Shown here: positions 3,642 through 64,000 of the stretch, one piece after another | How positions within the stretch are numbered: the stretch's first letter is position 1 | Layout of the letters: every line of letters begins with the position of its first letter | Source of the DNA: Candidatus Cloacimonadales bacterium | GTDB lineage: Bacteria; Cloacimonadota; Cloacimonadia; Cloacimonadales; JAFGVF01 | Assembly (NCBI GenBank): GCA_963677495.2 | Contig: CAXXOU010000001.1 | Location: 160,001 to 224,000 of the forward strand | Length of the DNA: 64,000 nt | Direction: 5' to 3' | Notes under the pieces: model-generated | Databases searched by the model: none | Seen by the model: the letters and a program-made list of their open reading frames with translations, nothing else | What the model was told of the DNA's origin: nothing | Program-made: the position numbers and the translations under genes

Positions 3642-3643
3642 AA

Positions 3644-28612: not shown

Positions 28613-28771
28613 TGTACTGTGACTCTCCTGAGTTGCTGTGACGACGAAGTCGGCAACTTCCACTGACCGAAACTGTCAATGGCAGTGAGAAATGGTACAC
28701 GATGGCAGTGAAAAGTGGTACAAAACTGCCAACCTTTAAAAATGACTACTTCAAGACAGTTTGGAGTAGGT

Positions 28772-30247
28772 ATGATTGGAGTAGAAGTGTATCATTCAAT
28801 AAAAACTATGCATAAGCAAGGGCATAGTCAGCGTAAGATCGCAGAGGAGTTGTCTCTATCAAAGACAACAGTAGGTAAATACATAAATATGACACTTGAT
28901 GAGTTCATGGAACTAATAAACAATAGCATTCGTGAAAGCAGTTTTGCCATATGTGAGCAATATGTCCGCGAAAGGCTTAGCAAATATCCACGATTAAGAG
29001 CTAGTGTACTATATTTAGAAGTTAAGAAAAAGTTCCCTGAGATAAAAGCAAAAGACAGAGCTTTCCGAGATTTTGTTCGTAAGCTAAAGCAGACTTATCC
29101 TGTCGATAAATACCGTAATTATGCAGTAATCGAGACGGCTCCCGGTGTTCAGGTTCAAGTTGATCCAGGTGAGATGAAAGTAGTTTTGGGTAATAAACGT
29201 CAAAGAGTTTATTTTATAGTTTTTGTGCTTTCCCACTCGCGTCAAAGCTATGTCCATTGGAGCACAACACCATATAACACATCAAGGTTTATTGAAGCTC
29301 ATCGTGAAGCTTTTATCTATTTTGAAGGTATCCCTTCAGAGTGTGTTTACGACCAGACAAAGCTTGTAGTAATACAGGAACGCTATCGGGAAGTAATCTT
29401 AAATAATCAGTTCCATCAGTTTGCAGCAAAAACGGGCTTTCATCCTCATGTATGCGAAGGCTATGATCCACAAAGCAAGGGTAAAGTAGAGCGTAATGTC
29501 TCAGAAGTAAAGCATGGCTTTATGTATGGCAAAGAGTTCAAAGACCTGGCAGACCTGCGTTCACGCGGACTTGAGTGGCTTTTACACTTTAACGGCAGAA
29601 CCCATGGCACAACCCGTAAAGTACCATCAGAAGTATGGCAAGAAGAGAGGTTAAAGCTAAAAGATATTCCAGAGTTTATCTTCACTTTAGAAGTTCGTAA
29701 TGCAGATAAAACAGGCTTAATCTCGTATGAGGGTAATAAGTACTCTGTTCCATTAGAGTATCAGCGAAAACAGGTATATGTGCAAAAAGAAAAGAGCACT
29801 TTAGTGGTGATGGATATTTATACAAGAAAGGAAATCTGCCAACATGAGCTATGCACAGAAAAAGGCAAAATCATCAAAAACACTAATCATTATCGGGATT
29901 TTACGGTAGTGCTACAAGAGCTTATTGAGCGAGTAAAGGATGAGATGAGTGAATATATCCAAGGAGAAGAACTAATCCAGAGGCTTGTTAATGATAACCC
30001 TAAAATAGCAAGGGATCAGTTGAGAGCCTTAAGCAAGTTTAAGCGTAACTATGAAACAGATGTATGGGAGTCAGTGCTTCCTGAGGTAATGACTCTTTCG
30101 CATGTAAAGGCAACAGCCATAGAGAAGCTTCTGAATGCAAAAGTAAGACAAATGAAGCTAAATGAATTATCAGAATCAGAACCACAACAAGACTCAGAGA
30201 GTTCATTAATAGAGCGCTCATTAGATGACTACATGAAGGTGTTATAA
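28772..30247 (+). CDS. istA: IS21 transposase
   Basis: HTH GHSQRKIAEELSLSKTTV; DDE VQVD, VYDQTK, KGKVER; ATG 28772 has GGAG RBS (ORF-track GTG at 28715 lies in the IR). Confidence 0.93.
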   Translation: MIGVEVYHSIKTMHKQGHSQRKIAEELSLSKTTVGKYINMTLDEFMELINNSIRESSFAICEQYVRERLSKYPRLRASVLYLEVKKKFPEIKAKDRAFRDFVRKLKQTYPVDKYRNYAVIETAPGVQVQVDPGEMKVVLGNKRQRVYFIVFVLSHSRQSYVHWSTTPYNTSRFIEAHREAFIYFEGIPSECVYDQTKLVVIQERYREVILNNQFHQFAAKTGFHPHVCEGYDPQSKGKVERNVSEVKHGFMYGKEFKDLADLRSRGLEWLLHFNGRTHGTTRKVPSEVWQEERLKLKDIPEFIFTLEVRNADKTGLISYEGNKYSVPLEYQRKQVYVQKEKSTLVVMDIYTRKEICQHELCTEKGKIIKNTNHYRDFTVVLQELIERVKDEMSEYIQGEELIQRLVNDNPKIARDQLRALSKFKRNYETDVWESVLPEVMTLSHVKATAIEKLLNAKVRQMKLNELSESEPQQDSESSLIERSLDDYMKVL

Positions 30248-30248
30248 G

Positions 30249-30980
30249 ATGATAGAGATAACTAAAACATACATCAAAAGGGCTCGTTGTACTCATATTT
30301 TGAATACTCTTGAAAGTGCAGTTTTAGAAGCAGAGAAACAGAATATGACTTATCTGGAGTTCGTACATTATCTATTTGAAAAAGAGAACTCAGGAAGGAA
30401 TCAAACCAATATCAACAGAAGACTTAAACAGGCTCACATCCCGGTAATAAAGACCTTTGATGAGTTCGACTATGCTTATCAACAAGTAATAACCAAAAGA
30501 CAAGTAAAGGAGTGGAAGAACTTTGTCTGGCTGGAGCAGAGGAGGAATATAATTTTAATGGGACCTCCGGGAGTAGGTAAGACTCATGTTGCAACAGCAC
30601 TCAGTTATGAAGCAATAAAGGCAGGCTATAAGGTGGTGTTTTATAATCTGAACAACCTTATCGAAGAACTTGTACTAGCTGAAGCAGATAACAACATAGA
30701 TAAATATCTAAGCAATATAGCCAAGAATGATCTGATAGTTATAGATGAGATGGGGTATCTTCCTCTCCAGACAAAGGCAGCTAATCTGTTCTTTAGACTC
30801 ATCCATCTCTTATACGAATTTAGATCAGTAATCATAACATCGAATAGGTTGTTTAATGAATGGGGAGCTATTTTTAACGACAATGTGATAGCAACTGCTA
30901 TTCTTGATAGATTACTCCATCACTCACAACCAATTACAATGCTCGGAGACAGCTTTAGACTAAGGAATTTTCAAAAATGA
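30249..30980 (+). CDS. istB: IS21 AAA+ helper ATPase
   Basis: Walker A GPPGVGKT, Walker B LIVIDEMGY, ITSN, AILDRLLHH, GDSFR. Confidence 0.95.
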   Translation: MIEITKTYIKRARCTHILNTLESAVLEAEKQNMTYLEFVHYLFEKENSGRNQTNINRRLKQAHIPVIKTFDEFDYAYQQVITKRQVKEWKNFVWLEQRRNIILMGPPGVGKTHVATALSYEAIKAGYKVVFYNLNNLIEELVLAEADNNIDKYLSNIAKNDLIVIDEMGYLPLQTKAANLFFRLIHLLYEFRSVIITSNRLFNEWGAIFNDNVIATAILDRLLHHSQPITMLGDSFRLRNFQK

Positions 30981-45536: not shown

Positions 45537-46379
45537 TTAAAACTTATAACCGACTGAAAAATGATGTGTGCCATCTAGAGTTGCATGTGAATTATATGCA
45601 TAATCAACGAGAATATTGTACATGTTGATTCCGGCACCAAAACTAATTACATTCGGTTTATTGTGAACACCACCCCTTAAAGTAAGGACTTCATGAGGTG
45701 AAATCTCAAGACCACCCATAATTTGGGTTTCTTCACCAAATTCCTGCTTAAGCTCAACAGATGTAGTCACCTTCTCATATGGTGAATGTGAGAGACCTAC
45801 AGCAAAAACTTGAGGAAGATCACTTTCATTATCTTTACCAATCTTAGGATTGTTTATGTTTGTAACAGAGAAAGCAAGTTTTGTTCTCTGTCTGATGGTA
45901 GCAAGTGCACCCATATTCACACCGAAAGCCATCTGAGTGTCATCAGAGTCAGCAAACTCAAGATTATATAGATTAACACCATAACCGAGTGTAAATTCAG
46001 TGTGTATATCTTTCATTAAAGTGAAACCATGGAAAAGACCCATAGTCTGTTCAGACATAAGTGTCTCATCTTCAAAGTCAACACTAAATGATTGAACACC
46101 GAGTCCGATTGCTCCGGCTTTACCAAAGTTGTAAGACACAGCTCCATTGATAAGAGTGTTATAGCCGGTGTTCCATAAGTCAGTATAGCTGATAATAGCA
46201 GCATTGTCAGCATAAACGAGACCGGCAGGATTATAGAAAACAGCAGTAGCATCATCAGCAACTGAGTAGAAAGCTCCACCCATACCACGAGCTCTTGCAG
46301 ATGCACCGTAATCATCAAAAACAGCATTAAGTGACAGAAGGGAAACGGTAAGTGCTATAATAATAAGTATCTTTTTCAT
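45537..46379 (-). CDS. PorV/PorQ family outer-membrane barrel, paralog 2
   Basis: ASARARGMGGAFYSVADDATAVFYNPAGL; VDYAY...THHFSVGYKF. Confidence 0.8.
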   Translation of the reverse strand: MKKILIIIALTVSLLSLNAVFDDYGASARARGMGGAFYSVADDATAVFYNPAGLVYADNAAIISYTDLWNTGYNTLINGAVSYNFGKAGAIGLGVQSFSVDFEDETLMSEQTMGLFHGFTLMKDIHTEFTLGYGVNLYNLEFADSDDTQMAFGVNMGALATIRQRTKLAFSVTNINNPKIGKDNESDLPQVFAVGLSHSPYEKVTTSVELKQEFGEETQIMGGLEISPHEVLTLRGGVHNKPNVISFGAGINMYNILVDYAYNSHATLDGTHHFSVGYKF

Positions 46380-46388
46380 CTCTACCTC

Positions 46389-47780
46389 CTATAGCTCTGT
46401 TGATATGACAATCGGTTGAGTAGTTGTTTTCTTTTTACCTGAGTCAAGTTTTATGACTTCAAGATGACATATATACATTCCGGGTGGAAGCATTTCATAA
46501 GATCTGTCCTTCCCGTTCCAAGTTGTGCTTTCAATGCCTAAAGAGCTGATTAGCTTTTCATTTAAGATAGTGTTTTCAAGCTGACCTTTAGAGTTATAAA
46601 TACTGATTATAACTTTGCAGTTAGTATTACCTTTCACTTCAGCACCGTACGCAATAGTAATCATCTCTTCTTTTGGATTGAAGATGTTTTTATCGCTATC
46701 AGCAGTGTAGATGTTTAAGAAAGGTTTTGATTCAGAATAAGGTACACTCACAAGGGAGTTAAAAATTCTGAAAGCATCTTCTTCATTATACATAAAAGAG
46801 TCGAAGATAAGTTCTGATTGCCCAAACTCTTTTGCAGTAGCTTCAAGAGTAATCAACAAACTATTGTCATCATCAACGATTAGATAATCATCAAAGTTGC
46901 ATTCAACTTTAACAGTATTCCCATCAACATGTGTGAACGTAACTTCTCCATCATACTCATCTGTCATTGAATCATCAAGACTATAACCATCAATAGAGAT
47001 AATTGCTGAATCATAAGAGAGCTCGAAGCTGTAAGACTCAACTTCTTCAGTATCTTCAACAGTATATGTTCTAACTGGGATATCGAAACTACCTGTACCA
47101 TCAACATTAATCTGTGGGATGTTGATACTTGGCTGTTCTATATCAGCTGAAGTTCTTGGACAAATTCTGAAGTAACTATAAGAATACTGAACAACACCTG
47201 TAATAGCAGTAAATTGATCTCCTGCTTGAGGATTAAGTTCATTATATGTAAAGAAGCCATCCATTACATATATTGAAGCACCGGAAGTATCAGTGATTTT
47301 GAAATCTCCATAGCTATCCACAGGGTTTGAGCATGTAGGAGCAATTATTTTTACAAGAACACCTTCCCATTGTTCTGCATCAGCACCAGTAAGGTCTGAA
47401 CATGTAATAACAGCAGGTTCAGGAAGTGGATTACCACTTGATTCTACAGTTGCACTAGAGACCTGACTCATTTCTGTAAGTTCATAATACTCTACAACAT
47501 CAGCAGTAACTACAACAGAGTCACCTAATGCTGGGAATGTACTGTAATCATAAACATAAACACCACTCCATGGTCCACCTTCTCTATCAGAAATAAAGTA
47601 TTTTTCATCATCAAATTCAATAGCTGTTACTATACCACCAACAGATACAGTTTGTCCGGAGTAAGGAGAGTTTCCATTTGCTTGATCAGTATACTGAATG
47701 TCGTACACGGATAATACTTCTGCAAAAAGCATGCTAGATGCAAGAAGTAACATAATAAATAATATCTTTTTTGTTTTCAT
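46389..47780 (-). CDS. Secreted protein: OB-fold domains, cohesin-like domain, variant FlgD-like CTD
   Basis: VYDIQY...SPYSGQTVSVGGIVTA, AEQWEGVLVKI (OB folds as in extracellular nucleases); SFDIPV...YSFELSYDSAII; KNIFNP...IYNSKGQ...WNGKD..GMYI. Confidence 0.65.
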   Translation of the reverse strand: MKTKKILFIMLLLASSMLFAEVLSVYDIQYTDQANGNSPYSGQTVSVGGIVTAIEFDDEKYFISDREGGPWSGVYVYDYSTFPALGDSVVVTADVVEYYELTEMSQVSSATVESSGNPLPEPAVITCSDLTGADAEQWEGVLVKIIAPTCSNPVDSYGDFKITDTSGASIYVMDGFFTYNELNPQAGDQFTAITGVVQYSYSYFRICPRTSADIEQPSINIPQINVDGTGSFDIPVRTYTVEDTEEVESYSFELSYDSAIISIDGYSLDDSMTDEYDGEVTFTHVDGNTVKVECNFDDYLIVDDDNSLLITLEATAKEFGQSELIFDSFMYNEEDAFRIFNSLVSVPYSESKPFLNIYTADSDKNIFNPKEEMITIAYGAEVKGNTNCKVIISIYNSKGQLENTILNEKLISSLGIESTTWNGKDRSYEMLPPGMYICHLEVIKLDSGKKKTTTQPIVISTEL

Positions 47781-51655: not shown

Positions 51656-51684
51656 AAAAGAGCCCGACCTGATGGTAGGGCTCA
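51656..51684 (-). terminator. Intrinsic terminator of 51705..53984
   Basis: Minus strand GAGCCCTACC-ATCA-GGTCGGGCTC TTTT. Confidence 0.7.
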
Positions 51685-51704: not shown

Positions 51705-53984
51705 TTATTTAACCATTATCATTTTTTGAGTTTCAGTTCTGTTTCCACTTGTCATTTTGTAGAAATAGATACCGCTAGTAGTCTGCTGACCATTGTTGTC
51801 TTCACCATTCCATACAATTGAATGTTCGCCGGCAGCTTTATGCTCGTTAACAAGAGTTTTAACAAGCTGGCCTTTAACATTGTATACGCTAACGTTAACG
51901 TTGCCATTAACAGGAGCATTGTATTTGATAGTTGTAGTTGGGTTGAATGGGTTAGGATAGTTACCCTGAAGCATAGCTTTTGAAGGAGCAACTTCAACAA
52001 CTTCGTTGTCAGTAGGGTTAACAGTAAAGTCAATAGCAGAAAGGACTAATTTACCAGGACCTGCTTGACCTTCAGCTTGAGTTGAACAACCCCAAACATC
52101 ATCATCATGGAAATAGAAGAATAAACGGTAAGTTTCGTTATTCTGATCATCTTCACCGAGGAAGAGAAGTTCTTCTGCTGGGTAAGCAAACATTGGAGTC
52201 ATACCATCCCAATCTGAGATATAAGCATGCTCAACACCAAAGCCCATGTCATTACCTGATTCATCTAACCAGAAATCGTCTTCAACTGAAACACCACTGA
52301 AAGCGATTGGTTGCTGCCATGTGCTACCATTATCAAGAGATAATGAGATATAGATTTCGTTAGAGTTTTCATAAGGCTGCCAGTATGATAAGTTATCAAC
52401 GTGGAAGTCATTTGCAGGAGTTGAATCATGCCATACCATAGCCATAACACCATTTTCATTAGCATTAGTAATCTTAGTATGTGCAAGATGGAAGAACATA
52501 GCATCATCATGTGAATCATGCTGATAGTGAGGGAAAGGCCAGATTGAATCTAAGCGGATGTTTCCATAACCTTCAACATCTGGAGTAACACCATCATCGA
52601 TACCATCATTAGCTCCGTCATCCCAATACTGGTCAACGTTACCATCATTATCCATATCCCAATGTACAAAGTGTCCGTCACCATTGCTCTTAGGGAATAC
52701 ATCAATAAGTTCCATTGTATTGTTAGCTACATCATAAACGATATCTTTAACAATGTGTAAACCATAGAAGTATGAACCTTCAGGAGTAACAAGACAGTAA
52801 GTAGCAGGCATATGAAGTTTGCCTTCTTCGTCCCAACCTAAAGTGAAGTGACCATTGTTTGTGATTGTGAATTCAAGACCATCATAAGGCGCATCACCAT
52901 TTTCAGTATCAACAAAGTAGTATGAACCATCAGCATTCTGAGGATTAGCAACCGGATAAGAAACGTCAAATGCATTCCAAGTCCAATCAGATGTTGGATT
53001 ACAATAATCATCATGAATGAAAACATCATAAGTCATCTCATCATCAGCTGTATCACCAATATGGTAACCCATATAGATAACTTTACCGGCATTAACACCT
53101 TTACCAACGATGAAACTGAACATAGGACGACGCCATTCGTTAGTATCGATATTCCAAGCATCCATTGTAGGGATAGATGTATAGTTCCAAGTCAATTCAA
53201 GACCGAAATCAACATCATCTTGAGTATAATCAGCATAAGCGATATAAGGGTTCTCAACTGGTGAAGGTTCACCTGTTGTTTCACTAATAACTGAATGAGA
53301 AACTGAGTTTCTACCTAAGATGTAGATACGTTGGTATGTGTCACCAAGTGGTGAAGGACCAACTTGAGTTGAAGGCCAGATGTACTGGTTATCATCAAAA
53401 CCGTTTAATGTAACAGGATTAAGAACAGCATTATATGCATCAGAAGGGATTCCAGGAATACCCGCAAAGTACGGATCCCAACCCATCTTGATATCATATA
53501 CGTCGTCACCATCTGGATCAACGTGCCATGCCATCATCATTTTACCCCAATCATCGACATCCATACTTGAATATCCTTCCCAGGTATCAACAGTTGTGAA
53601 TAAGCCATTATGAGCAACACTACCAGTTCCATCTACGTATGAGTAATAAACACGTCTGTTACCAGAAGCAGAAGGTTTACCCATATAAGTGATGAACATG
53701 CCATCGCCATATGCTCCACCCGGTTGCATTCTGATAGGTGTGTTTGAATATGCACCAGGCATATAATCATAGTAGTTAGGATCAAGTAAATTTTGCTGAG
53801 CATAGTTGTTTGCCCAGTTTACAGTTCTTTCTGTTCTTGATGTTGTGCCAATAGTACTAGCATTACGGCCAGCAATTGAACCATCAAGTCCAATCATCTT
53901 CTGCGTTCTAGCAGGAGTTTGTACTTCTGCAAATAATGCAAAAGCCAATGTTATTAACATAAGTATGGTCAGGGTCTTCTTCAT
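51705..53984 (-). CDS. Secreted acidic protein (possible beta-propeller) with FlgD-like CTD
   Basis: Signal peptide; Asp-box-like SLDNGSTW; NYPNPFNPTT...SGIYFYKM tail. Confidence 0.7.
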   Translation of the reverse strand: MKKTLTILMLITLAFALFAEVQTPARTQKMIGLDGSIAGRNASTIGTTSRTERTVNWANNYAQQNLLDPNYYDYMPGAYSNTPIRMQPGGAYGDGMFITYMGKPSASGNRRVYYSYVDGTGSVAHNGLFTTVDTWEGYSSMDVDDWGKMMMAWHVDPDGDDVYDIKMGWDPYFAGIPGIPSDAYNAVLNPVTLNGFDDNQYIWPSTQVGPSPLGDTYQRIYILGRNSVSHSVISETTGEPSPVENPYIAYADYTQDDVDFGLELTWNYTSIPTMDAWNIDTNEWRRPMFSFIVGKGVNAGKVIYMGYHIGDTADDEMTYDVFIHDDYCNPTSDWTWNAFDVSYPVANPQNADGSYYFVDTENGDAPYDGLEFTITNNGHFTLGWDEEGKLHMPATYCLVTPEGSYFYGLHIVKDIVYDVANNTMELIDVFPKSNGDGHFVHWDMDNDGNVDQYWDDGANDGIDDGVTPDVEGYGNIRLDSIWPFPHYQHDSHDDAMFFHLAHTKITNANENGVMAMVWHDSTPANDFHVDNLSYWQPYENSNEIYISLSLDNGSTWQQPIAFSGVSVEDDFWLDESGNDMGFGVEHAYISDWDGMTPMFAYPAEELLFLGEDDQNNETYRLFFYFHDDDVWGCSTQAEGQAGPGKLVLSAIDFTVNPTDNEVVEVAPSKAMLQGNYPNPFNPTTTIKYNAPVNGNVNVSVYNVKGQLVKTLVNEHKAAGEHSIVWNGEDNNGQQTTSGIYFYKMTSGNRTETQKMIMVK

Positions 53985-54014
53985 AATTCCTCCATATATT
54001 ACTTATTACTTATT

Positions 54015-55046
54015 TTAGAATTTCATTTTAAGTGAGACTCTATGAGCTCCGTGTACGAAATCTTCTGTTAGATATCCCATATCAGTGTAAGCATAGTCAA
54101 CATGATAAACAGCTAAGTCTGTAGGCAACATAACACCGAAACCTGCAGTGAAACCGTTTGTATCATAATTGAACTGGTAACCACCTCTTAAGAATAAGAC
54201 TGAAATCTTATACTCAAGACCGGCATTCCAAGTTTCACTTCTATCAACAACGTTATCAAGCTGAGCTGAAGCTAAAAGATATGAGTTATCGTTTTTGAAG
54301 AGGTCCATACTTGCTCCAAGTGAGAAGTTAAGAGGAATCTTGTATCCAAGTTCTTCTTTATCTTCATCGATAAGACCGTCATTGTCATTATCAAGCAAGT
54401 CAAAAGGATCCTCATCTTCACTACCATCGCCATCATTATCAACAGTGAATTTTACATCAGGACCAAAGTTTCTGAGTGTCATACCAATCTTAAGATTGTT
54501 CCAGTTAGTATTATAGATTGAGCCAATATCAACAGCATAGCTATTAACACTAATATCTTCATAAAGGTCTTCTCTTAAATACTTAACAGTAACACCAAAG
54601 TTGAACTGGCTAGTCCAAGCTACTGCATATGTTAAACCAACTGAAAGATCGGAAGATCTGAAAGTACGGCCAGTAGGACCAAACTCTTCTTCAGTAGTTT
54701 CATCCATTTCAGACATATGCAAGAATGAACCTGATATAGCAAATGTGCTTATACCACTGTTGTATGATGCTGCAACAAATTCATGATAAATGTCTGCAGG
54801 CCAGTTTGTGTGTGAGTAAAAAGCCTGAGAGCTGGTAGTCATACCAAGTCCTGCAGGATTCCAGAAAACTGAAGAGATATCATCAGTGACAGGAACATAC
54901 GCTTCACCCATACCAATAGCACGAGCATCAACACCAAGTTTCAAAAACTGAAGTGATGCTGTACCAACTTTAGGAAAGATTTCAGCATTAAGAAATACCG
55001 GAACAAAAAGTAAGATTACGATTAAGGTAGTAACTATTCTTTTCAT
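54015..55046 (-). CDS. PorV/PorQ family outer-membrane barrel, paralog 3 (acidic loop insertion)
   Basis: KVGTASLQFLKLGVDARAIGMGEAY...SVFWNPAGL; VDYAY...HRVSLKMKF. Confidence 0.85.
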   Translation of the reverse strand: MKRIVTTLIVILLFVPVFLNAEIFPKVGTASLQFLKLGVDARAIGMGEAYVPVTDDISSVFWNPAGLGMTTSSQAFYSHTNWPADIYHEFVAASYNSGISTFAISGSFLHMSEMDETTEEEFGPTGRTFRSSDLSVGLTYAVAWTSQFNFGVTVKYLREDLYEDISVNSYAVDIGSIYNTNWNNLKIGMTLRNFGPDVKFTVDNDGDGSEDEDPFDLLDNDNDGLIDEDKEELGYKIPLNFSLGASMDLFKNDNSYLLASAQLDNVVDRSETWNAGLEYKISVLFLRGGYQFNYDTNGFTAGFGVMLPTDLAVYHVDYAYTDMGYLTEDFVHGAHRVSLKMKF

Positions 55047-55054
55047 CTTTCCTC

Positions 55055-58000
55055 CTATTTAATTATCACGAATTTGCCGACTTTGATATCACCACTTTCT
55101 TTATCTTCTACAGAGAAAAGATAAACTCCACTAGCAATAATCTGGTCATAACGGGATAGGATATCCCATTCGTGCATACCATCTGCAGTAATACCTTGGG
55201 TAGCAGCTTTACTAATAGTAATAATGTCAGCACCATGTGCACCATTATGCTTAATAGTATCTACCAAGTCACCTGCAAGGGTATAAATTCTAATTGTACA
55301 TTTTTTTGGTAAGTTAACGAACCAAAGGCGCTTACTCTTATCACCTTTATCGTCACTCTCTCTTCTACCATCAAACTTAGATGAGCCAAGATATGGGTTT
55401 GGCACAACATAGATGTCATCCATATCCGCTTTAGCTGTGTTTCCAGGGAAAAGAACTTTCATATTAGCATCTGCATCTCTACCAGACTCAAGGTAATCAA
55501 GGTCATTACTTGGGATACCTCTATCAAAGGCTGTTACAGCTGTATAATATTCGATTCCACGTGGAGGGCTAACAATCTGCTGATGATAAAATCTTCTTGA
55601 TAATCTATCCATCATAAGAAGTTCTAATGTTGCGTCAGTAGCACTAGCAAAGATGTTAGGGTTACTTGTTTGTCCGCCATGACCTTCTAATGGAATTAAA
55701 GCATCATCATAAAGCTCATTGTAAACTTCTACAGGGACATTCTCATTCTTAAATAAGAGTGCCTGTGCATTTCTAGCTTCAGCAGTTAACAAACTTGTAC
55801 TGCTGCCAAGATCTTGAGCGATTTGGTCTGCAGTAGCTTGTAAATCTTCTGTCCAGAAAACATCTGGAGCATATAAAGGACTACCGTAAATTACATCATC
55901 AACTTGAACTGGAACAAAACGATAGTATTCATTTAATCTGTAATAACCAAGATCTGTGTCATCAGCAACCTTCTTTTCAGGTAAACCTAAATCATTACCA
56001 CGATAACCGCCGTAGTAGATTGAATCACCTTGGTCTTGGTTAACAACATAGTCAGCCAAATCAACTTCAGTCTCAATTTTATCCCAACGGTTAATCATTT
56101 CCCAGTCTTCCTGAGAACCGCTACCTGAACGACCCCATAATGTGTAACCTTGGAAATCATGTCTAAGTCTATTACCTGTGAAAGGATTAACTTTAGCAGC
56201 AACATTCATGTTGTTCTCTGTCAAACCAAATTCAGCAGGGAATGAACTATCATGATTACCTTGGAAACTATCCCATTGTGGGTTATTGGACTGCCAACCG
56301 ATAAGAGCAGTACTTACTGTTTTTGTATCAACAGTATACTCAGATCTATTATCCCAATAGATGTCAATTATCTTACCATCGTCAACGATGTCAGCATACA
56401 TTTTAGGAATTGTTGGTGGCTCTGGTGGATTATAATGTGGGAAGGTATCAGGTAAGACAACAGTAGTCAAATCCTGTGCTTGACCATAGATATCTTTTGC
56501 CCAACGAGCTGAACGCTTAAGGTCAGGTAAATTATCTCCAGGGAATACAGCAACAACAATTTTCATTGTCTTTGATGGCGCAAGATTCCAACGTTTAGTC
56601 TCATCATTATAATCAGATGAACCCGGTTGAGCACCATAGAATGCAAACAAGAAACGAGTATCAGCTGCATTTGGTTGTTCAAACTCAGTTATTGTAGGAT
56701 CATCATTTTTTCTTAAGTCAAGAATGTCTGGGTTAGATGCAGGCTTTTTACCTGTAAGAAGATAATACTTTTCATTATAAGTTTCAGCACTACCTATCTG
56801 CAATGGATCAGTGTCATCCGGACCTTCACCAACAGCCCAATACCAACATGAGAACTCAAGAGTATCAGGGTCAGGAGTACATACACGAGCACCAACTAAA
56901 CCATCAACAAGACCATCATCACCATCATCATCTCTAGTATAAGCAAACTCATATCCACGACCTTTTACATAACCGGAAAGGTCATCTTGAGCTTTTTCAG
57001 AGCCATAACTCTGAGGACCAACGTCTGAGTCCATATAGATGCCCATTGCACAATCGTACAATGTGTCCTGACCCATATTGGTAACGTCAAATTCAACATA
57101 TACTAGGTTTTTAATATATTCATAACTCCACTGATATGACATCTGTCTTACTCTAATATTCAATGGTACGTGGTTATTACCACCCTTTGAACCACCCCAG
57201 TCTCTGTTAACTGAAGTACCGAAAGGACTATAGTCATAATAATATGAAATGAAATCCTGTTCTGAAACAGGGGCACCATCTTCATCAATGTAGTTATCGT
57301 TATCATCATTTACAGGACCGGCAAAATTGTAATCAAGATCACCGTAAGCAAAATCTTCACCTGAGTCACTAAGATCCATAAATCCGAGTGGGAACCAGAT
57401 TTCAAAGTTTCTACCTTCTGTAATTTTACCAATGTCTTCAGCTGTAAGACTAGCAAGATAATCCTCACTCATATTAGAGAATACAGAAGGCAATTCTGAG
57501 TCATCTCTAAACTTGAAAGTGTATCCTGGGAAATCTTCATCTACAAGTCCATCACCATCATCATCAACTCCACGACGGTTTCTTCTGATTGAAGAAGTAA
57601 TAATCTCATCTGATGGATTGTTACCTTCAAAATATGGAGCAACTTCATCAGATGAAGATTCTAATGGATTATAAGCAGGTAAGAATTCATAAAGGTCTGC
57701 ATCACCATCAAAACCAACTGAGACAAGTGTGTCGATTACAGCGTGTAAGCCTGGATTCCAATCCGGACTATCCTCTGTAACTGTATCATTATTTTCAGGT
57801 GTTGGTGGGAAAGTCTTCCAATAAAGCTTTTCACCAGCCTGATCTCTTCTTTGCTTCTTAGCACCAAACCATAAAGCACCTTGATAAAGGTAGTCAGCAC
57901 CACTACCACCTGGATATTCAAGTGACGGATACTGTGGTTGAATATCATCACCGGAGCCAAAGAAACCGTAGTTACTTACTCTCAGCCAAATATTACCAAC

Positions 58001-58126
58001 ATTATGATATTGGGTTAAATCAAATTTCTTTCCTGATGTTGAATTTACAGCCATTCTTGCACCAAGTGCTAAGAGAACTGTAAGAAGTAATAAAACCAGG
58101 AAAACCTTTCTATAGTTATAGTTCAT
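55055..58126 (-). CDS. Large secreted protein with variant FlgD-like CTD
   Basis: HNVGNIWLRVSNYG..EYPGGSG..YLYQGALWFGA N-terminus; DIYVVPNPY...IRIYTLAGDLV...SGVYLFSV...GKFVIIK tail. Confidence 0.7.
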   Translation of the reverse strand: MNYNYRKVFLVLLLLTVLLALGARMAVNSTSGKKFDLTQYHNVGNIWLRVSNYGFFGSGDDIQPQYPSLEYPGGSGADYLYQGALWFGAKKQRRDQAGEKLYWKTFPPTPENNDTVTEDSPDWNPGLHAVIDTLVSVGFDGDADLYEFLPAYNPLESSSDEVAPYFEGNNPSDEIITSSIRRNRRGVDDDGDGLVDEDFPGYTFKFRDDSELPSVFSNMSEDYLASLTAEDIGKITEGRNFEIWFPLGFMDLSDSGEDFAYGDLDYNFAGPVNDDNDNYIDEDGAPVSEQDFISYYYDYSPFGTSVNRDWGGSKGGNNHVPLNIRVRQMSYQWSYEYIKNLVYVEFDVTNMGQDTLYDCAMGIYMDSDVGPQSYGSEKAQDDLSGYVKGRGYEFAYTRDDDGDDGLVDGLVGARVCTPDPDTLEFSCWYWAVGEGPDDTDPLQIGSAETYNEKYYLLTGKKPASNPDILDLRKNDDPTITEFEQPNAADTRFLFAFYGAQPGSSDYNDETKRWNLAPSKTMKIVVAVFPGDNLPDLKRSARWAKDIYGQAQDLTTVVLPDTFPHYNPPEPPTIPKMYADIVDDGKIIDIYWDNRSEYTVDTKTVSTALIGWQSNNPQWDSFQGNHDSSFPAEFGLTENNMNVAAKVNPFTGNRLRHDFQGYTLWGRSGSGSQEDWEMINRWDKIETEVDLADYVVNQDQGDSIYYGGYRGNDLGLPEKKVADDTDLGYYRLNEYYRFVPVQVDDVIYGSPLYAPDVFWTEDLQATADQIAQDLGSSTSLLTAEARNAQALLFKNENVPVEVYNELYDDALIPLEGHGGQTSNPNIFASATDATLELLMMDRLSRRFYHQQIVSPPRGIEYYTAVTAFDRGIPSNDLDYLESGRDADANMKVLFPGNTAKADMDDIYVVPNPYLGSSKFDGRRESDDKGDKSKRLWFVNLPKKCTIRIYTLAGDLVDTIKHNGAHGADIITISKAATQGITADGMHEWDILSRYDQIIASGVYLFSVEDKESGDIKVGKFVIIK

Positions 58127-58144
58127 TAGTTATCCTCCAATAGA

Positions 58145-58798
58145 TCAAAACGCGAATGTTACAGGGAACTGAACCCAACATGCAACTGGTTGTCCACCGC
58201 TTTTAGCAGGCTGGAAAGTCCATTTTTTTACTGCTTTAACAGCAGCTTCATCTAAACCACCCATACCGGGTTGTAGTGACTCAAGTACTTCAACAGCACC
58301 AACTGAGCCATCTTCTAATACTTCAACATCAAGAAGTACATCACCCTGGATACCGGATTTCTTAGCGAAATCTGAATACTCAGGTAATACTGAAGTCAAT
58401 ACCTCTGGTGGATCCTCATAAGCAACGAACTTAGGAGTTTCACCATGCTTGCCTCTTGGGGCTTCAACTATGTCTTGAGGATCCAATGAGGTGCTTTCGA
58501 TAGTATCAATTTCAATTATGTCTTCATTTTCATCACTATCAAGATCAGTATCATCGATAATGATTTCCAGATCAACTTTAGCCTGCTCTGGTGGTTTAAT
58601 CTTTTCCCTGATCTCAGGTGGGATTTCTATTGCTTCAACGTGTTTTACTTCACGTTTTTTTACCTTTATCTCGAACTTAGGTGTGGTCATTACTGCGAAT
58701 AGCATAATGATTATAGAAAGGCTTAAAGCTTTCTCAAAATAGGAGTTTGCAACATCTTTCCAATCCTGGATTCTTTCTGTTTTACTCATCTCACTCAC
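58145..58798 (-). CDS. tonB: Energy transducer TonB
   Basis: N-terminal TM; PEYSDFAKKSGIQGDVLL...LDEAAVKAVKKWTFQPA..GQPV. Confidence 0.88.
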   Translation of the reverse strand: MSEMSKTERIQDWKDVANSYFEKALSLSIIIMLFAVMTTPKFEIKVKKREVKHVEAIEIPPEIREKIKPPEQAKVDLEIIIDDTDLDSDENEDIIEIDTIESTSLDPQDIVEAPRGKHGETPKFVAYEDPPEVLTSVLPEYSDFAKKSGIQGDVLLDVEVLEDGSVGAVEVLESLQPGMGGLDEAAVKAVKKWTFQPAKSGGQPVACWVQFPVTFAF

Positions 58799-59203
58799 CT
58801 ACCTTTTCAACCTTGCTTCAAAGTATACGCGAAGAGCATCAGCTTTTTGTAGCTGCTTTAAAACGTCTGACATCACACCAAAACGTGTGTGCTTATCTGT
58901 TCTAAAACAGAAAAGAGAGTTGTAGTCCAAAGCTAACTTGCTTAACATTATATATTCTATGCTTTCTAATGGAATAAGCAAATCATCAATTGATACATTC
59001 TCATTTTTATCTACATAAATAGTCACAGCATGATTACGTGGAATCTTCTCAATAGCGTATGCTTTTGGAAGTTCAACGTTCAAGCCTTTTTCTTTCACGA
59101 ACACTGTTGAAACCATGAAGAACAGTAACAGAAGGAAGGAGATGTCTGACATTGAAGCTGTCGGTATTGAAACTTTAGCTCTTTTCTTTCTAAGTAAGGC
59201 CAT
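58799..59203 (-). CDS. exbD: ExbD/TolR family protein
   Basis: IPTASMSDISFLLLLFFMV TM with conserved Asp. Confidence 0.88.
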   Translation of the reverse strand: MALLRKKRAKVSIPTASMSDISFLLLLFFMVSTVFVKEKGLNVELPKAYAIEKIPRNHAVTIYVDKNENVSIDDLLIPLESIEYIMLSKLALDYNSLFCFRTDKHTRFGVMSDVLKQLQKADALRVYFEARLKR

Positions 59204-59214
59204 CTTTTCTCCTT

Positions 59215-59622
59215 TTAGTTAGTTGAAAGCGAAATTTTTTCAGCACCAGCTCTTTGAATTCTATCAAGAACAAGTACCATATTATCATATTTCGCGTTTC
59301 TGTCTGTTTTTAGAGAAACAACCATATCAGGGTTCTCTCTAACAGTTTTCTGAACTCTGTCTTCAAGCTGGTCAATGTCAACAATCTCATCGTTTAGGTG
59401 AATCTCACCTTCACCGTCGACAAAAACCTTGGTTAAATTATCTTGTTTAAGTTTCACCTTCTTTGTATCTTCTTTAGAAGCTGCAGGTAAAACTATACCA
59501 AGACCTTTCTTAATATCGAATGTAGTAGTTGAAAGGAAGAACACCAGCAAAAGGAAAGAAATATCTGACATAGAAGCTGTTGGTATTTCAACTTCTGCCT
59601 TCCTTTTACGGTCAAAACTCAT
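59215..59622 (-). CDS. exbD: ExbD/TolR family protein
   Basis: IPTASMSDISFLLLVFFL; KTDRNAKYDNMVLVLD. Confidence 0.88.
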   Translation of the reverse strand: MSFDRKRKAEVEIPTASMSDISFLLLVFFLSTTTFDIKKGLGIVLPAASKEDTKKVKLKQDNLTKVFVDGEGEIHLNDEIVDIDQLEDRVQKTVRENPDMVVSLKTDRNAKYDNMVLVLDRIQRAGAEKISLSTN

Positions 59623-60447
59623 TTATTCCCCCTTCTTTTCGATAAGCTTTTCAACTACTTTTTCTGTTGCACGCTGCATATCAATCACAAGGTTATCAAC
59701 CATACCGGTGAAGATATTGTAGAAGAACTGTACCGGAATAGAGATAGCCAAACCAGCAGCAGAAGTAATAAGAGCGATCTTAATACCACCGGCAACAATA
59801 GTTGGTTCAACTTCACCGGCTTTTTCAATCGCATCGAAAGCAGCAATCATACCAACAAGTGTACCGAAGAAACCGAACATTGGTGCAAGGGTAATAGTTG
59901 TTGATAACTCTGTGAAACCTTTTTCAAGGTAAGACATCTCAATCACACCGGCATTTTCAATAGCTTTTTCTACAGCTTCAAGCCCTCTATCAGCTTTAAG
60001 CAATCCGGCATAAATAACAGCAGCAACTGGACCGCGAGTTTTCTTTGCAAACTCAACTGCATCTTTGTACTGACCTTTTTCGATAAGAGGAAGAATTTTC
60101 TCCAAAAATTCGGAAACGTTTACTTTAGCATAGCTGATAGCAATCATTTTCCAGATAATGTAAGCAAGACCCCAAATTGTTAGGGCAAGAAGTGGCCACA
60201 TTGTGAATCCACCCTTTACAAAGATATCTACGAATCCACTACCAAGAACTTTCTTTGCGAATTCTTGTAATCCACCACCTTGGGTAGCAGCCTCTGTTTC
60301 CATTGCATCGGGTTGTGCAACATCTGCACTTTCCACTTCCTGACTCATTGTAGGATCGGTAGCATCTGCTTGAGCAAAAGCTATACTTGTGAAGGTTAAA
60401 CTCATCACAATAACCATAAGTACGGTTAAGACAAGATTCCTTTTCAT
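59623..60447 (-). CDS. exbB: ExbB/MotA/TolQ proton channel
   Basis: LAPMFGFFGTLVGMIAAF, VAGGIKIALITSAAGL. Confidence 0.9.
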   Translation of the reverse strand: MKRNLVLTVLMVIVMSLTFTSIAFAQADATDPTMSQEVESADVAQPDAMETEAATQGGGLQEFAKKVLGSGFVDIFVKGGFTMWPLLALTIWGLAYIIWKMIAISYAKVNVSEFLEKILPLIEKGQYKDAVEFAKKTRGPVAAVIYAGLLKADRGLEAVEKAIENAGVIEMSYLEKGFTELSTTITLAPMFGFFGTLVGMIAAFDAIEKAGEVEPTIVAGGIKIALITSAAGLAISIPVQFFYNIFTGMVDNLVIDMQRATEKVVEKLIEKKGE

Positions 60448-60473
60448 TCTTCTCTATCCTCCTTAGTATTTAT

Positions 60474-63400
60474 TTAAAAATTAAAGGCTACGCCAACCGT
60501 AACTCTTCTTTCATTATTTTCGTATGATGGGTTGTTTACTACAGATTCACGTACAAACTGATCTTCAGGTACAACATAGCCCTCATTCGTTGTTATAGCG
60601 TCGTTGCTTCCATCCCAGTTTGGATTTCCTGTTTTTGGATATACGTAGCTGATATTATTATATTTGAACAGATTTGAGATATCACAATAAGCTCTGAGTT
60701 TAAATCTCTTTCCAAATGCCCAGCCTTTTGTGATTCTTAAATTTGTATTCATTGTTGGTTCCATTCTCTCACTATTTGTATCAAGTGTTTCATCGTTCTC
60801 TGATACTGGAGTGTAAGGTCTGGCTGTAGTGAAGTTCGCACTGAAGTTAGTTGAGAAATCACTGAATGGTAAAATCCATGATGTACCAGGTATGATAAAT
60901 TCTTCACCACGGTCAATTCTGAAAGTAAGGTTCAACTTCACATCGTGTCTTACATCCCAATCAAGTGGGAATTCACGGTAGTTAGTATTGTAATCTTGTA
61001 TTACTGTAGCTGAGCTATTACCTTCTGCCCATGCTAAACTATAAGCAACTGAACCGGTCCAGAAGTTAGACATAAACTTAGTTAAACTTAAGTCAATACC
61101 TCTAGCACTACCATAGTCCTGAGAGATATACTCATACCAGTAAACCTGTTCCTGATCTTCCTGTGTTTTCTTTTCAGTTGATACATAATTATAGATATTC
61201 TTATAATATGTAGTAACATCAAGTACGTAGTCTTCACTAACCTGGTGAGTAAGACCAACTTCATAAGTCACAGTAATCTGTGGCTCAAGTTTTGGGTTAC
61301 CAACTGTGATACCAGCATTATCATTTGCATCATCAGGAGTTCTACTTGTGAAGATATATGCCATAGGAGGTAACTGGTTTTGGTAGTTGTAAGCAAATCT
61401 CAACACGTCTCTTTCTGAGATAGGATGAGAAACACCTAATCTAGGAGAAAGCATCAACTGATGCAGATCTGACTCATCAAAACCAAGATCATCTACAAAA
61501 TCAACATCTTCATAAGTACCATCATCAAGAAGCTTTTCATAACCTTGGCCAAGATACCAATAGTCAAGACGAAGACCTAAGTTTACGATCATTCCTTCCC
61601 ATTCCATTCTATCTTGTAAGTAGTATGCACCTTGAAGTGGATTTGCTTTATAACCATTACTAACACCTGATCCTGCTTGTGCAGCAGAGTAGTAGTCGTC
61701 TGGTTTATAAACAAAAATGTAGTCATTAGCAACAACGCCTGTTGTATCAATCTGTTCAACATGAGCAAGCTGGTCAGGAATTGAAGCCATATCAGCAGTG
61801 TCATCTAAATCTATATATGAACTTGTATCATAAACATTTTTGAGATAATCTTCCATTCTAGTATTGCTTATAGAAAGGAAACCACCTAATTGATCTTTAT
61901 TAATATCATGCTGTATAAACTCTAAACCGGTTTTAGCTTGATGAATATCATTAATCATATATTCAAAGTCAGCTTTGAAACTTGCAGTTGTAGTTTCATC
62001 ATTTATGAATGTATCAGCAATAGTACCTGGATAAGTATAAGGTATACTTCCGGATGTATCCATACCTGTTAATGGATACTCATAAACCCACTCTTCATAT
62101 GATGGGAAACCGGCCATAATGTTACCGGTCTGTGCAATTGTGTCCCAACCTGCTCCAATATCACCGATAACGTAATTACTGAAAACATCATCTACATATG
62201 CATCAAGTGCTTCCTGATCTACAGTTCCATCAGCATTGTAAATATCAGAGTTATTTGTTGTTTGATAAATATATGAATCTCTATCTACACCTTTAGGTGC
62301 ATAATCTGTAGTTTTATTATAATAACTAGCTTTGATCTTAAGATTCATCTGTGGGTTGAATACTTGGTCAAAGTTAACAACATACTGTCTTTGGTTGACT
62401 TCACTCTGTCCATTATGCTGAAGTGCATATTGATCACCATGACTGTATGAATCGTTTACTTCTCTATCACCACGAACAGCTAAAGTAACTTTTGTTCTTG
62501 GTGTAATCTGATACTTGGTTTTAAAGTTCAGATTATAGCTATTATAATTTCTCTGACCTGTCTCTGTCCAAAGGAAATCTTCTCTGTTTTCATATGGATC
62601 ATATTCATCATAGTCATACTCTAAAAGAGGAGTGCCATTAAGGATGAAGTCATCGTTAGGATCACTTTTCCAGTTATCTTTAAATCTTCCATCAGTCCAT
62701 TGACCACTTCCATTTAAGAAGAAAGTAAGATTATTCCTTAATTTTCCAAATCCATAACCAAGAACCGGACCACCAATAGCAAAACGTAATAAATCAAAGT
62801 TACTGTTTTCATCTATAATAAGATGATCAGTTGAATACTCAATTTTACCACTATAATTTCTGCTACCACTTTTAGTAACAATTGAAACGATACCAGACTG
62901 TGCATTACCAAATTCAGCAGTAAAACCACCGGTCATAACATTCATATCTGCAATAGCATCTGTATCAACAGATAAAGCTGCACCACCGTCAACTGGGTCA
63001 GAAACTGACATACCGTCAACTGAGTAAACTACCTCACCGGTACGTCCACCACGAACACGTACACCATCTCCTGAAACTGAGATACCGGCAATGTTTCCAA
63101 GAATGTCAGAAACATCATCGACAGCCTGTTCACTAAGATTATCAACTTCGATTCTCTTTTGAGAACCAACCTGTTTTGTGTCCACTTTGTCTTTTACGGC
63201 TTTAATTGTTACACCTTCGATTTTCACGGATGATTTAACCAGTTTTGCATTCTGTGTACTAACAGAACCTGCGTTAATTCTAATTCCTTCGATTGTAACA
63301 GTGTGGAAACTCATTTTTGATACACGTGCATCATAAACACCCGGAGGGATGTTAATAATTTTACATGTACCGTTTTTCTTAGTCATTCCACCAATTTGGG

Positions 63401-63557
63401 TGATTGCACCATCTTTAAATAGAACTATGTTCACATAAGATAACGCTTCTCCATCCTCGGTCTTAACTTTAACAGCTAGGGTACCTGTTTCTTGTGCAAC
63501 CAAAGATAAACTTCCAAAAAGCAAAACAAAGAACAATATTGAAGCTATCTTTCGCAT
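60474..63557 (-). CDS. TonB-dependent outer-membrane receptor with N-terminal carboxypeptidase-regulatory-like domain
   Basis: Plug motifs VRGGR..EV.Y.VDG, GGFTAEFGNAQSGIV; barrel SPRLGVSHP, GNPKLEPQ; ends FNF; ATG 63557 best spaced from GGAGG. Confidence 0.9.
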   Translation of the reverse strand: MRKIASILFFVLLFGSLSLVAQETGTLAVKVKTEDGEALSYVNIVLFKDGAITQIGGMTKKNGTCKIINIPPGVYDARVSKMSFHTVTIEGIRINAGSVSTQNAKLVKSSVKIEGVTIKAVKDKVDTKQVGSQKRIEVDNLSEQAVDDVSDILGNIAGISVSGDGVRVRGGRTGEVVYSVDGMSVSDPVDGGAALSVDTDAIADMNVMTGGFTAEFGNAQSGIVSIVTKSGSRNYSGKIEYSTDHLIIDENSNFDLLRFAIGGPVLGYGFGKLRNNLTFFLNGSGQWTDGRFKDNWKSDPNDDFILNGTPLLEYDYDEYDPYENREDFLWTETGQRNYNSYNLNFKTKYQITPRTKVTLAVRGDREVNDSYSHGDQYALQHNGQSEVNQRQYVVNFDQVFNPQMNLKIKASYYNKTTDYAPKGVDRDSYIYQTTNNSDIYNADGTVDQEALDAYVDDVFSNYVIGDIGAGWDTIAQTGNIMAGFPSYEEWVYEYPLTGMDTSGSIPYTYPGTIADTFINDETTTASFKADFEYMINDIHQAKTGLEFIQHDINKDQLGGFLSISNTRMEDYLKNVYDTSSYIDLDDTADMASIPDQLAHVEQIDTTGVVANDYIFVYKPDDYYSAAQAGSGVSNGYKANPLQGAYYLQDRMEWEGMIVNLGLRLDYWYLGQGYEKLLDDGTYEDVDFVDDLGFDESDLHQLMLSPRLGVSHPISERDVLRFAYNYQNQLPPMAYIFTSRTPDDANDNAGITVGNPKLEPQITVTYEVGLTHQVSEDYVLDVTTYYKNIYNYVSTEKKTQEDQEQVYWYEYISQDYGSARGIDLSLTKFMSNFWTGSVAYSLAWAEGNSSATVIQDYNTNYREFPLDWDVRHDVKLNLTFRIDRGEEFIIPGTSWILPFSDFSTNFSANFTTARPYTPVSENDETLDTNSERMEPTMNTNLRITKGWAFGKRFKLRAYCDISNLFKYNNISYVYPKTGNPNWDGSNDAITTNEGYVVPEDQFVRESVVNNPSYENNERRVTVGVAFNF

Positions 63558-63670: not shown

Positions 63671-64000
63671 TTATTTACGGAAATTCCAGCTGTCTGTACC
63701 ATATTTACTCTCTGTTAATTCTTCCATTAGCTTTCTCTCATATTCACTGATTCCTGATTCAATTACGAATTCATCTGAACTCCATTGCTCCTGAAATCCT
63801 TGAACTAATTTTTCCGTTACTTCCTCGTAAGAATAATTGTTAATCTGTGCTTGATTAATCGAAATTGTCTTTCTCTGCAAGAATCTGGCCAACTTCTCTT
63901 TCTTCTCCGTTTCCAGTCCGGGTACTAACCATGCAACTTCTGCCTGGTTTTCATGAAGAAGGATTGAGCCATGTTGTAATAGCATATCTCCCTTTCGAAC
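63671..64000 (-). CDS. Lipoate-protein ligase family protein (C-terminal part; runs off window edge)
   Basis: Open to window end (VRKGDMLLQHGSILL...KYGTDSWNFRK), LplA/LipM-like QHGSIL motif and C-terminus. Confidence 0.8.
   Translation of the reverse strand, partial: VRKGDMLLQHGSILLHENQAEVAWLVPGLETEKKEKLARFLQRKTISINQAQINNYSYEEVTEKLVQGFQEQWSSDEFVIESGISEYERKLMEELTESKYGTDSWNFRK

Follow-up and report, generated by a model that had tools for sequence, protein, structure and literature searches.

What does an operon do that opens with a TonB-dependent channel and its Ton motor and then continues into type IX secretion system (T9SS) proteins? The question is raised by eight genes in a 64,000-nucleotide stretch of a Candidatus Cloacimonadales genome (positions 160,001 to 224,000 of contig CAXXOU010000001.1, here called the window), where a TonB-dependent transporter gene (the channel) is followed by exbB, two exbD and tonB, and then by genes for a 1023-aa protein with a T9SS-type C-terminal domain (CTD; the partner), a PorV-like outer-membrane barrel and a 759-aa cargo. 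A sequence-only reading of the window had proposed either an import machine whose lid is a CTD protein held by a dedicated PorV barrel, or a form of CTD secretion energised by the Ton motor. We find that the operon is real, highly conserved and a new combination of two known kinds of machine. We give a probability of about 0.5 to its being an importer driven by the Ton motor, in which SprA exports the capture protein and a dedicated carrier barrel keeps hold of it, replacing SusD.

Composition and conservation of the operon

All eight open reading frames (ORFs) lie on the minus strand between 51705 and 63560, each with a purine-rich ribosome-binding-like site ahead of it. The gaps of 26, 0, 11, 0, 18, 8 and 30 bp agree with the sequence-only reading, and Pfam and NCBIfam confirmed the identities that it had assigned (receptor, ExbB, two ExbD, TonB, PorV-family barrel and CTD protein). 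A distance of 751 bp separates the operon end from the next gene downstream. The source genome measures 3.4 Mb and is 99.5% complete.

Conservation was followed through 121 Cloacimonadota genomes, each at least 90% complete. The partner is present in 111 of them, at 51-64% identity outside the genus, and SprA in 115. The order channel-exbB-exbD-exbD-tonB-partner-barrel, which we call the cassette, is intact in all 18 loci fetched from 18 other genomes of the phylum, so the operon is not a chance arrangement and its conservation is phylum-wide; the 759-aa family comes next in 15 of these loci, and a lipoate-ligase gene lies upstream of the channel in 14. Median identities to the source genome (17 loci) are 57% for the barrel, 54% for the partner, 54% for ExbB, 50% for TonB, 43% for the channel and 30% for the 759-aa protein.

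The genomes that lack the partner fall into two groups. Six (G002, G005, G008, G017, G023 and G064), of 1.5-1.6 Mb and one contig each, form family f12 and have neither partner nor SprA. No type A tail exceeded the cut-off in the three of these that were checked, the plug domain was found in none of five, and all six retain only a distant ExbB (33-34%); an ExbB-ExbD-TonB-like set is kept in those checked. This co-loss of cassette and SprA is a single loss event in a reduced lineage. The other four genomes are fragmented, SprA-positive and partner-negative; three of them hold the orthologous channel as a partial match (44-49%), which in one starts at base 16 of its contig, and the fourth is also without the flanking purM. 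The missing partners are here likely assembly gaps.

Judged by sequence, all transporter parts can be recognised in the channel, and the motor genes form an ordinary Ton set. The channel has a CarboxypepD-like N-terminal extension (residues 27-107), a plug at 133-223 (PF07715, 31.7 bits against a cut-off of 23.9; present in 39 of 41 channel-family members), a barrel matching PF14905 (49.6 bits; PF00593 was matched in 23 of the 41) and a C-terminal Phe. A TonB-box-like stretch at about 113-121 is a motif match, with alternating E-x-I/V-T-V-x-A columns (115-121) kept across 41 aligned rows. Profile searches matched PhuR, Cir and FepA-type receptor chains, and no SusC/RagA model was among the NCBIfam matches at E 0.01. 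Elsewhere in the genome, a 765-aa protein (G000:C3:28943-31240) has two extension domains and a plug-like region resembling the channel N-terminus, without a matching barrel.

The motor proteins lie above their Pfam cut-offs and below the NCBIfam equivalog cut-offs for ExbB/TolQ and ExbD/TolR, and the membrane Asp motif is present in 36 of 37 ExbD sequences. This is probably the cell's general Ton motor, sited in the operon of its main client. Four further MotA/ExbB loci occur elsewhere in the source genome. One of them, a second motor cluster (L096, G000:C3:6848-17967), is Agl-Glt-like and lacks a receptor; it encodes envelope proteins of 326 and 680 aa, a TPR protein of 1496 aa, ExbB, two copies of ExbD and a protein of 495 aa whose tail is weakly of AgmX/PglI type. 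Its TPR gene is found in 93 of the 121 genomes, and of the two motor-bearing loci profiled the operon tracks SprA best. At G000:C3:421330-428908, MotA- and MotB-like genes adjoin a 1558-aa divergent-CTD protein and an ATPase.

The partner is single copy in the source genome and belongs to no named family: it has no Pfam family, NCBIfam gave only a weak PorZ-tail match, and the partner clusters of an atlas search were without a name. Its predicted structure (pLDDT 89, pTM 0.87) divides into three parts. Residues ~33-570 are predicted to form a galactose-mutarotase-like beta-supersandwich, a fold common to many sugar-acting proteins, which matches galactose mutarotase and the domain at the N-terminus of GH15/65/94/116 enzymes (best Z 19.0, rmsd 3.5, 262 residues); ~575-895 is a predicted FN3-like domain with inserts; and the modelled tail (~900-1023) resembles the PorZ CTD (Z 12.0, rmsd 2.1, 92 residues). 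We rejected assignment of the partner as a GH15/65/94/116 enzyme, the predicted model having no catalytic (alpha/alpha)6 domain beside the supersandwich.

The tail is private to the partner. It is the most divergent among 189 CTD-like tails of the source genome and is kept in 98 of 99 complete partner relatives from other phyla. Seven CTD genes lie directly beside a PorV-family gene, and the tails of six of them are divergent (0-44 bits on a generic model vs a median of 98), the seventh being the 759-aa protein, on whose family the generic tail model was built. PorZ-PorQ and PorU-PorV are known tail-carrier pairs. Two further adjacent pairs lie in the window: a PorU-like C25 protein (1679 aa) with a divergent tail followed by a PorV-like gene (2631-8683), and a 463-aa OB-fold/ExeM-like CTD protein, also with a divergent tail, followed by a 280-aa PorV-like gene (45537-47780).

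The cassette barrel matches PorV, and not PorP/SprF, in both Pfam (PF19572) and NCBIfam (NF033709, 196 bits, cut-off 90), and contains no Cys. It falls below the equivalog cut-offs for PorV (72.7 of 250 bits) and PorQ (85 of 220); another PorV-family paralogue of the source genome reaches 166 bits on the PorV equivalog. On a quick, unrooted tree of 55 rows, from which 15 loci had been thinned out, cassette barrels cluster by phylum on short branches and paralogues sit on long ones.

The 759-aa protein is an accessory, ordinary cargo outside the ancient core described below. It has a type A sorting domain and two paralogues elsewhere in the source genome, and its model (pLDDT 83) predicts a 7-bladed propeller with generic matches to Vgb and YncE (Z about 20) and an ordinary tail. 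An atlas search with its N-part returned no match at or above 0.9.

The absence of a SusD-like lipoprotein holds for this operon. None of its eight proteins has a Cys within the first 47 residues and hence none has a lipoprotein signal, and SusD (PF07980) was found in none of five genomes, the source genome included, with the B. thetaiotaomicron control positive. In other phyla the statement has to be qualified, as an unnamed lipoprotein gene follows the barrel in Zixibacteria and some others.

Channel, barrel and partner in other phyla

A partner search returned 2569 representatives at E 0.001, with source labels including Calditrichota, Delongbacteria, Ignavibacteria and Stahlbacteria. Our other-phylum sample consists of 74 loci from the best 80 of 615 matches, with titles including KSB1, Eisenbacteria, Fermentibacteria, Zixibacteria and UBP14. 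The channel lies upstream of the partner in 38 of the 74 and not in 28, while 8 are too short to show it. Channel, partner and barrel occur together in 30, and 8 more loci end before the barrel would be visible. This trio has also been copied as a unit within genomes (L026). SprA was found in all 43 other-phylum genomes tested, all of them partner carriers.

The motor lies inside the locus in only two of the 74 (L046 and L093). In the small phylum of these two loci (5 genomes) the full seven-gene cassette has a further exbB behind the barrel, and genes for S8 peptidase CTD proteins come next; the phylum searches around G163 and G154 covered 5 and 2 genomes. Cassette-type ExbB (38-51%) occurs in 12 of the 43 genomes, and all eight such loci that were inspected hold stand-alone motor genes without channel or partner, one of them (L107) 1.8 kb from a PorV-like gene; loci L110-L113 are excluded from the counts.

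A different arrangement is seen in the phylum of G160, which carries Zixibacteria labels. The channel family is present in 71 of 71 genomes and so is the partner family, with 1-14 matches per genome; sequences from this phylum went into the profiles, and a number of matches is not a copy number. Across the 16 orthologous loci fetched there, from which the split locus of G156 is excluded, the barrel follows the channel in 16 and a lipoprotein gene comes next in 16; the partner stands between channel and barrel in 5, and a lipoate-ligase gene lies ahead in 15. The Zixibacteria use an ExbB of a different clade from that of the cassette. From these gene orders we conclude that channel and barrel are the invariant pair, that the partner is always somewhere in the genome, and that motor and last gene vary. 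The ancient core is the channel, the barrel and a partner with a private C-terminal tail.

Variation in the last gene is considerable. Genes after the barrel in other phyla are mostly unrelated to the 759-aa propeller (a single match, L041, E 8e-6). In Zixibacteria, UBP14 and relatives its place is taken by an unnamed 550-820-aa lipoprotein family (L032:13485-15392, L040:13491-15137, L122-L137) with no Pfam or NCBIfam match. On the other side, the lipoate-ligase gene lies directly upstream of the channel in 14 of the 30 other-phylum loci and in 15 of the 16 of the Zixibacteria phylum (ranges L032-L081 and L122-L140), in L047 after glycine-cleavage P genes. This linkage may mean that the channel imports lipoate, or it may be mere old synteny.

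The sequence-only reading knew of no characterised example of either machine, and a full-text literature search, with most subscription papers and supplements outside its scope, found no paper on a module of TonB-dependent transporter, CTD protein and PorV or on T9SS power outside Bacteroidota; supplements of genome surveys might list cassette genes. New here are the finding that channel and barrel stay paired in Zixibacteria although the partner there moves and multiplies, the link to a lipoate-ligase gene across phyla, the detachable motor and the count of private tails.

A proposed importer with a carrier-tethered capture protein, and its alternatives

Our preferred reading starts from observed gene content, order, families, conservation, private tail and co-occurrence with SprA, together with predicted folds. 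The partner's CTD fold and the constant company of SprA suggest that this likely capture protein would be exported through SprA. Its private tail would then hold it at the cell surface on the adjacent PorV-like barrel, by analogy with T9SS type B carriers; gene linkage suggests that barrel or partner touches the channel. There the partner may feed substrate to the channel, in SusD's place, and the anatomy of the channel suggests that transport would be inward and TonB-driven. In Bacteroidota, a cargo with a type B tail exits SprA on a dedicated carrier that then serves as its surface anchor, and energy is required for release from the SprA translocon (PMC10994853). Together with the channel's anatomy and the ordinary motor, this leads us to read the partner as SprA-exported and barrel-held beside the channel. 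SusD itself is a lid on its transporter (PMC13543919).

Of the two proposals of the sequence-only reading, the import machine fits best, given normal transporter anatomy, a private CTD and a cognate barrel; for the contact between receptor, partner and barrel the evidence is gene linkage. Channel and barrel genes are linked at all 18 Cloacimonadota loci, at 30 of the 74 from other phyla (8 more end too early to show a barrel) and at all 16 of the Zixibacteria phylum. If true, this would be a second, SusD-free way to place a capture protein on a TonB channel, via secretion-system carriers, and a core trait of several abundant anaerobic phyla.

Several observations weigh against it. The distribution is that of a housekeeping system, with one orthologue in about every genome of two phyla, and a lipoate-ligase gene adjoins the locus in 14 of 18, 14 of 30 and 15 of 16 loci. 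No glycoside hydrolase or polysaccharide lyase family was found among 81 neighbours of relatives (E 1e-6) except one beta-helix protein, and the operon and its flanks hold no CAZyme genes. The partner is better conserved than the channel (median identities of 54% and 43%), which is odd for a substrate-specific lid. It is gone from the locus in 11 of 16 Zixibacteria-phylum loci, and 1-14 partner matches accompany one top channel. Three tandem 680-700-aa paralogues in another genome (L101, G012:C2, 5198-11495) carry the partner N-domain on an ordinary type A tail, away from barrel or channel, so this domain does not need the trio in order to work. Because YidC has a supersandwich too, and the fold is also found as a non-catalytic domain, it names no function. 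If the operon is nonetheless an importer, its housekeeping-like distribution would imply a substrate that all these anaerobes need, such as peptides or a cofactor, and not a variable polysaccharide. We also ran a complex prediction on a smaller KSB1-like stand-in (L022), the window's own channel-partner pair exceeding 1000 residues; the channel barrel (262-932, plug and N-terminal extension removed) with the partner N-domain (55-383) scored 0.00, a run without controls that counts neither way.

The operon can be set beside several known systems. Like SusC/SusD (RagA/RagB), it has a TonB-dependent transporter that bears a CarboxypepD-like extension, a predicted surface partner encoded next after it, and an exbB-exbD-exbD-tonB-type motor. 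Unlike it, the cassette has no SusD or lipoprotein lid and no SusC/RagA model match, its partner bears a T9SS-type tail and has its own barrel, and it is single-copy, phylum-wide and set in housekeeping surroundings rather than in a polysaccharide locus. T9SS carrier-cargo pairs such as SprB-SprF, or PorV with type A cargo, likewise place a PorV-family barrel gene beside that of a divergent-CTD protein, with a CTD fold like PorZ's; the cassette pair is tied to a TonB-dependent channel, no GldL or GldM was found in a search without a positive control, and the barrel lacks the cysteine for a GldK disulfide (PMC12635249). The type B pair (SprF/PorP type) shares the placement of a carrier gene next to that of a cargo whose CTD is of a separate class, whereas the cassette barrel is of the PorV family and not of the PorP/SprF family with its cysteine tail.

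A considerably less probable alternative is that the operon supplies the energy step of a T9SS without GldLM, the Ton motor ejecting carrier-cargo complexes from SprA, either via the channel-barrel pair or directly on a translocon part. The host inventory is part of the case for it. SprA scores 438.8 bits on TIGR04189 (cut-off 200), and there are a PorU-like protein (251 of 420 bits) with Peptidase_C25 adjoining a PorV-like gene, a SprE-like TPR lipoprotein below its cut-off (76 of 250 bits), at least 150 type A cargoes (TIGR04183) and 10 PorV-family matches (NF033709), 5 of them above cut-off. As for a canonical T9SS motor elsewhere, GldM was found in 0 of 121 genomes, GldL in 0 of 49 and PF12080 not in the source genome; these searches ran without a T9SS-positive control genome, so absence is not proven. 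Ten FGE-sulfatase matches were found in the source genome, none of them, on inspection of ORF sizes and N-termini, within a porKLMN-like run. Cloacimonadota are listed among phyla possibly having T9SS (PMC11285876). Ignavibacterium and Melioribacter similarly have SprA and PorV without other T9SS proteins, and the accessible text names no energy source or transporter-linked module there (PMC11705866).

Release from the translocon needs energy in Bacteroidota (PMC10994853). The cassette is lost together with SprA in family f12, the four SprA-positive, partner-negative genomes look like assembly gaps, all 71 genomes of the Zixibacteria phylum have the channel family, the Agl-Glt-like motor (93 of 121) tracks SprA less well than the cassette, and in four f13 genomes sprA lies ~7 kb from the cassette. 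However, the f12 co-loss happened once, in a reduced lineage from which all plug-domain receptors have gone as well (0 of 5); a client of the T9SS would also disappear, so client dependence explains it equally well. The motor, moreover, has the make-up of an ordinary Ton set and in other phyla lies away from both trio and sprA, with an ExbB of another clade in Zixibacteria; the source genome has the four other MotA/ExbB loci, its sprA lies ~280 kb from the operon, and the lack of GldL/GldM rests on the search without a positive control. Ton-energised CTD secretion is accordingly the weaker of the two proposals. It is likewise doubtful that across many non-Bacteroidota phyla of the Fibrobacterota-Chlorobiota-Bacteroidota group T9SS runs without GldKLMN, powered by the channel-barrel-partner module and a Ton motor, with Ton-driven secretion predating the gliding motor; T9SS has been inferred to have evolved as part of gliding (PMC12635249), the opposite order.

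Somewhat less likely again is an outward-working channel or a housekeeping platform of the envelope, on the model of Oar and PopC, channel and barrel serving to export, display or recycle private-tail proteins and uptake not being the purpose. Oar, which has a TonB box, shares the architecture of N-terminal extension, plug and barrel, is clustered with tonB, exbB and two exbD, and is required for protein secretion (PMC6434023). One channel and one barrel serving many partner paralogues in Zixibacteria would suit such a platform, as would the housekeeping neighbours. Yet the partner, with its T9SS-fold tail, is always accompanied by SprA and so has a way out at hand, and passage of a folded 110-kDa protein through a plugged transporter barrel is unlikely. 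The Oar architecture is also the commonest among Bacteroidetes importers, and no T9SS parts are mentioned for Oar in the accessible sections of that paper (PMC6434023).

Least likely is that there is no single machine, and that co-expression is what keeps the general Ton motor, one receptor and a carrier-cargo pair unrelated to them in one old envelope cluster. In its favour, just 2 of the 74 other-phylum loci contain the motor, different lineages have swapped the last gene, and the unrelated lipoate-ligase gene kept upstream across phyla indicates that linkage here can be ancestral without function. Against it, channel and barrel remain adjacent where the partner has left (11 of 16), whole trios have been copied within genomes (L026), and the channel-barrel link is unbroken in every orthologous locus read to its end, whereas 4 of 18 and 16 of 30 loci lack the link to lipoate ligase.

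Coordinates and further features of the window

Table 1. Genes and sites of the operon and its borders (window coordinates)
Feature	Position	Strand	Remarks
TonB-dependent transporter, 1028 aa	60474..63560	-	ATG start probably 63557; signal peptide, N-terminal extension, plug, barrel
ExbB (MotA/TolQ/ExbB proton channel), 274 aa	59623..60447	-	Pfam/NCBIfam
ExbD copy 1, 135 aa	59215..59622	-	membrane Asp retained
ExbD copy 2, 134 aa	58799..59203	-	membrane Asp retained
TonB, 217 aa	58145..58798	-	N-terminal membrane anchor; TonB_C domain 139-216
Partner, 1023 aa, no named family	55055..58126	-	signal peptide, predicted supersandwich, FN3-like domain, private T9SS-type CTD
PorV/PorQ-family outer-membrane barrel, 343 aa	54015..55046	-	family model above cut-off; no cysteine
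Cargo, 759 aa	51705..53984	-	predicted 7-bladed beta-propeller and ordinary type A CTD; accessory, fast-evolving
Lipoate-ligase-family gene (273 aa), 3' end	63671..64000	-	neighbour kept upstream of channel across phyla; context, machine membership not implied
Possible terminator, just 3' of last gene	51660..51683	-	predicted G+C-rich hairpin then short T run; fold prediction, missed by separate site scan

Promoter-like sites showed no excess in the scan (32 observed vs 43 in shuffles). At window positions 28715-30980 lies a pair of ORFs, one transposase-like (510 aa) and one helper ATPase-like (243 aa), which we take to be IS21-like; a fragmented copy is present at G000:C1:126506-128773.

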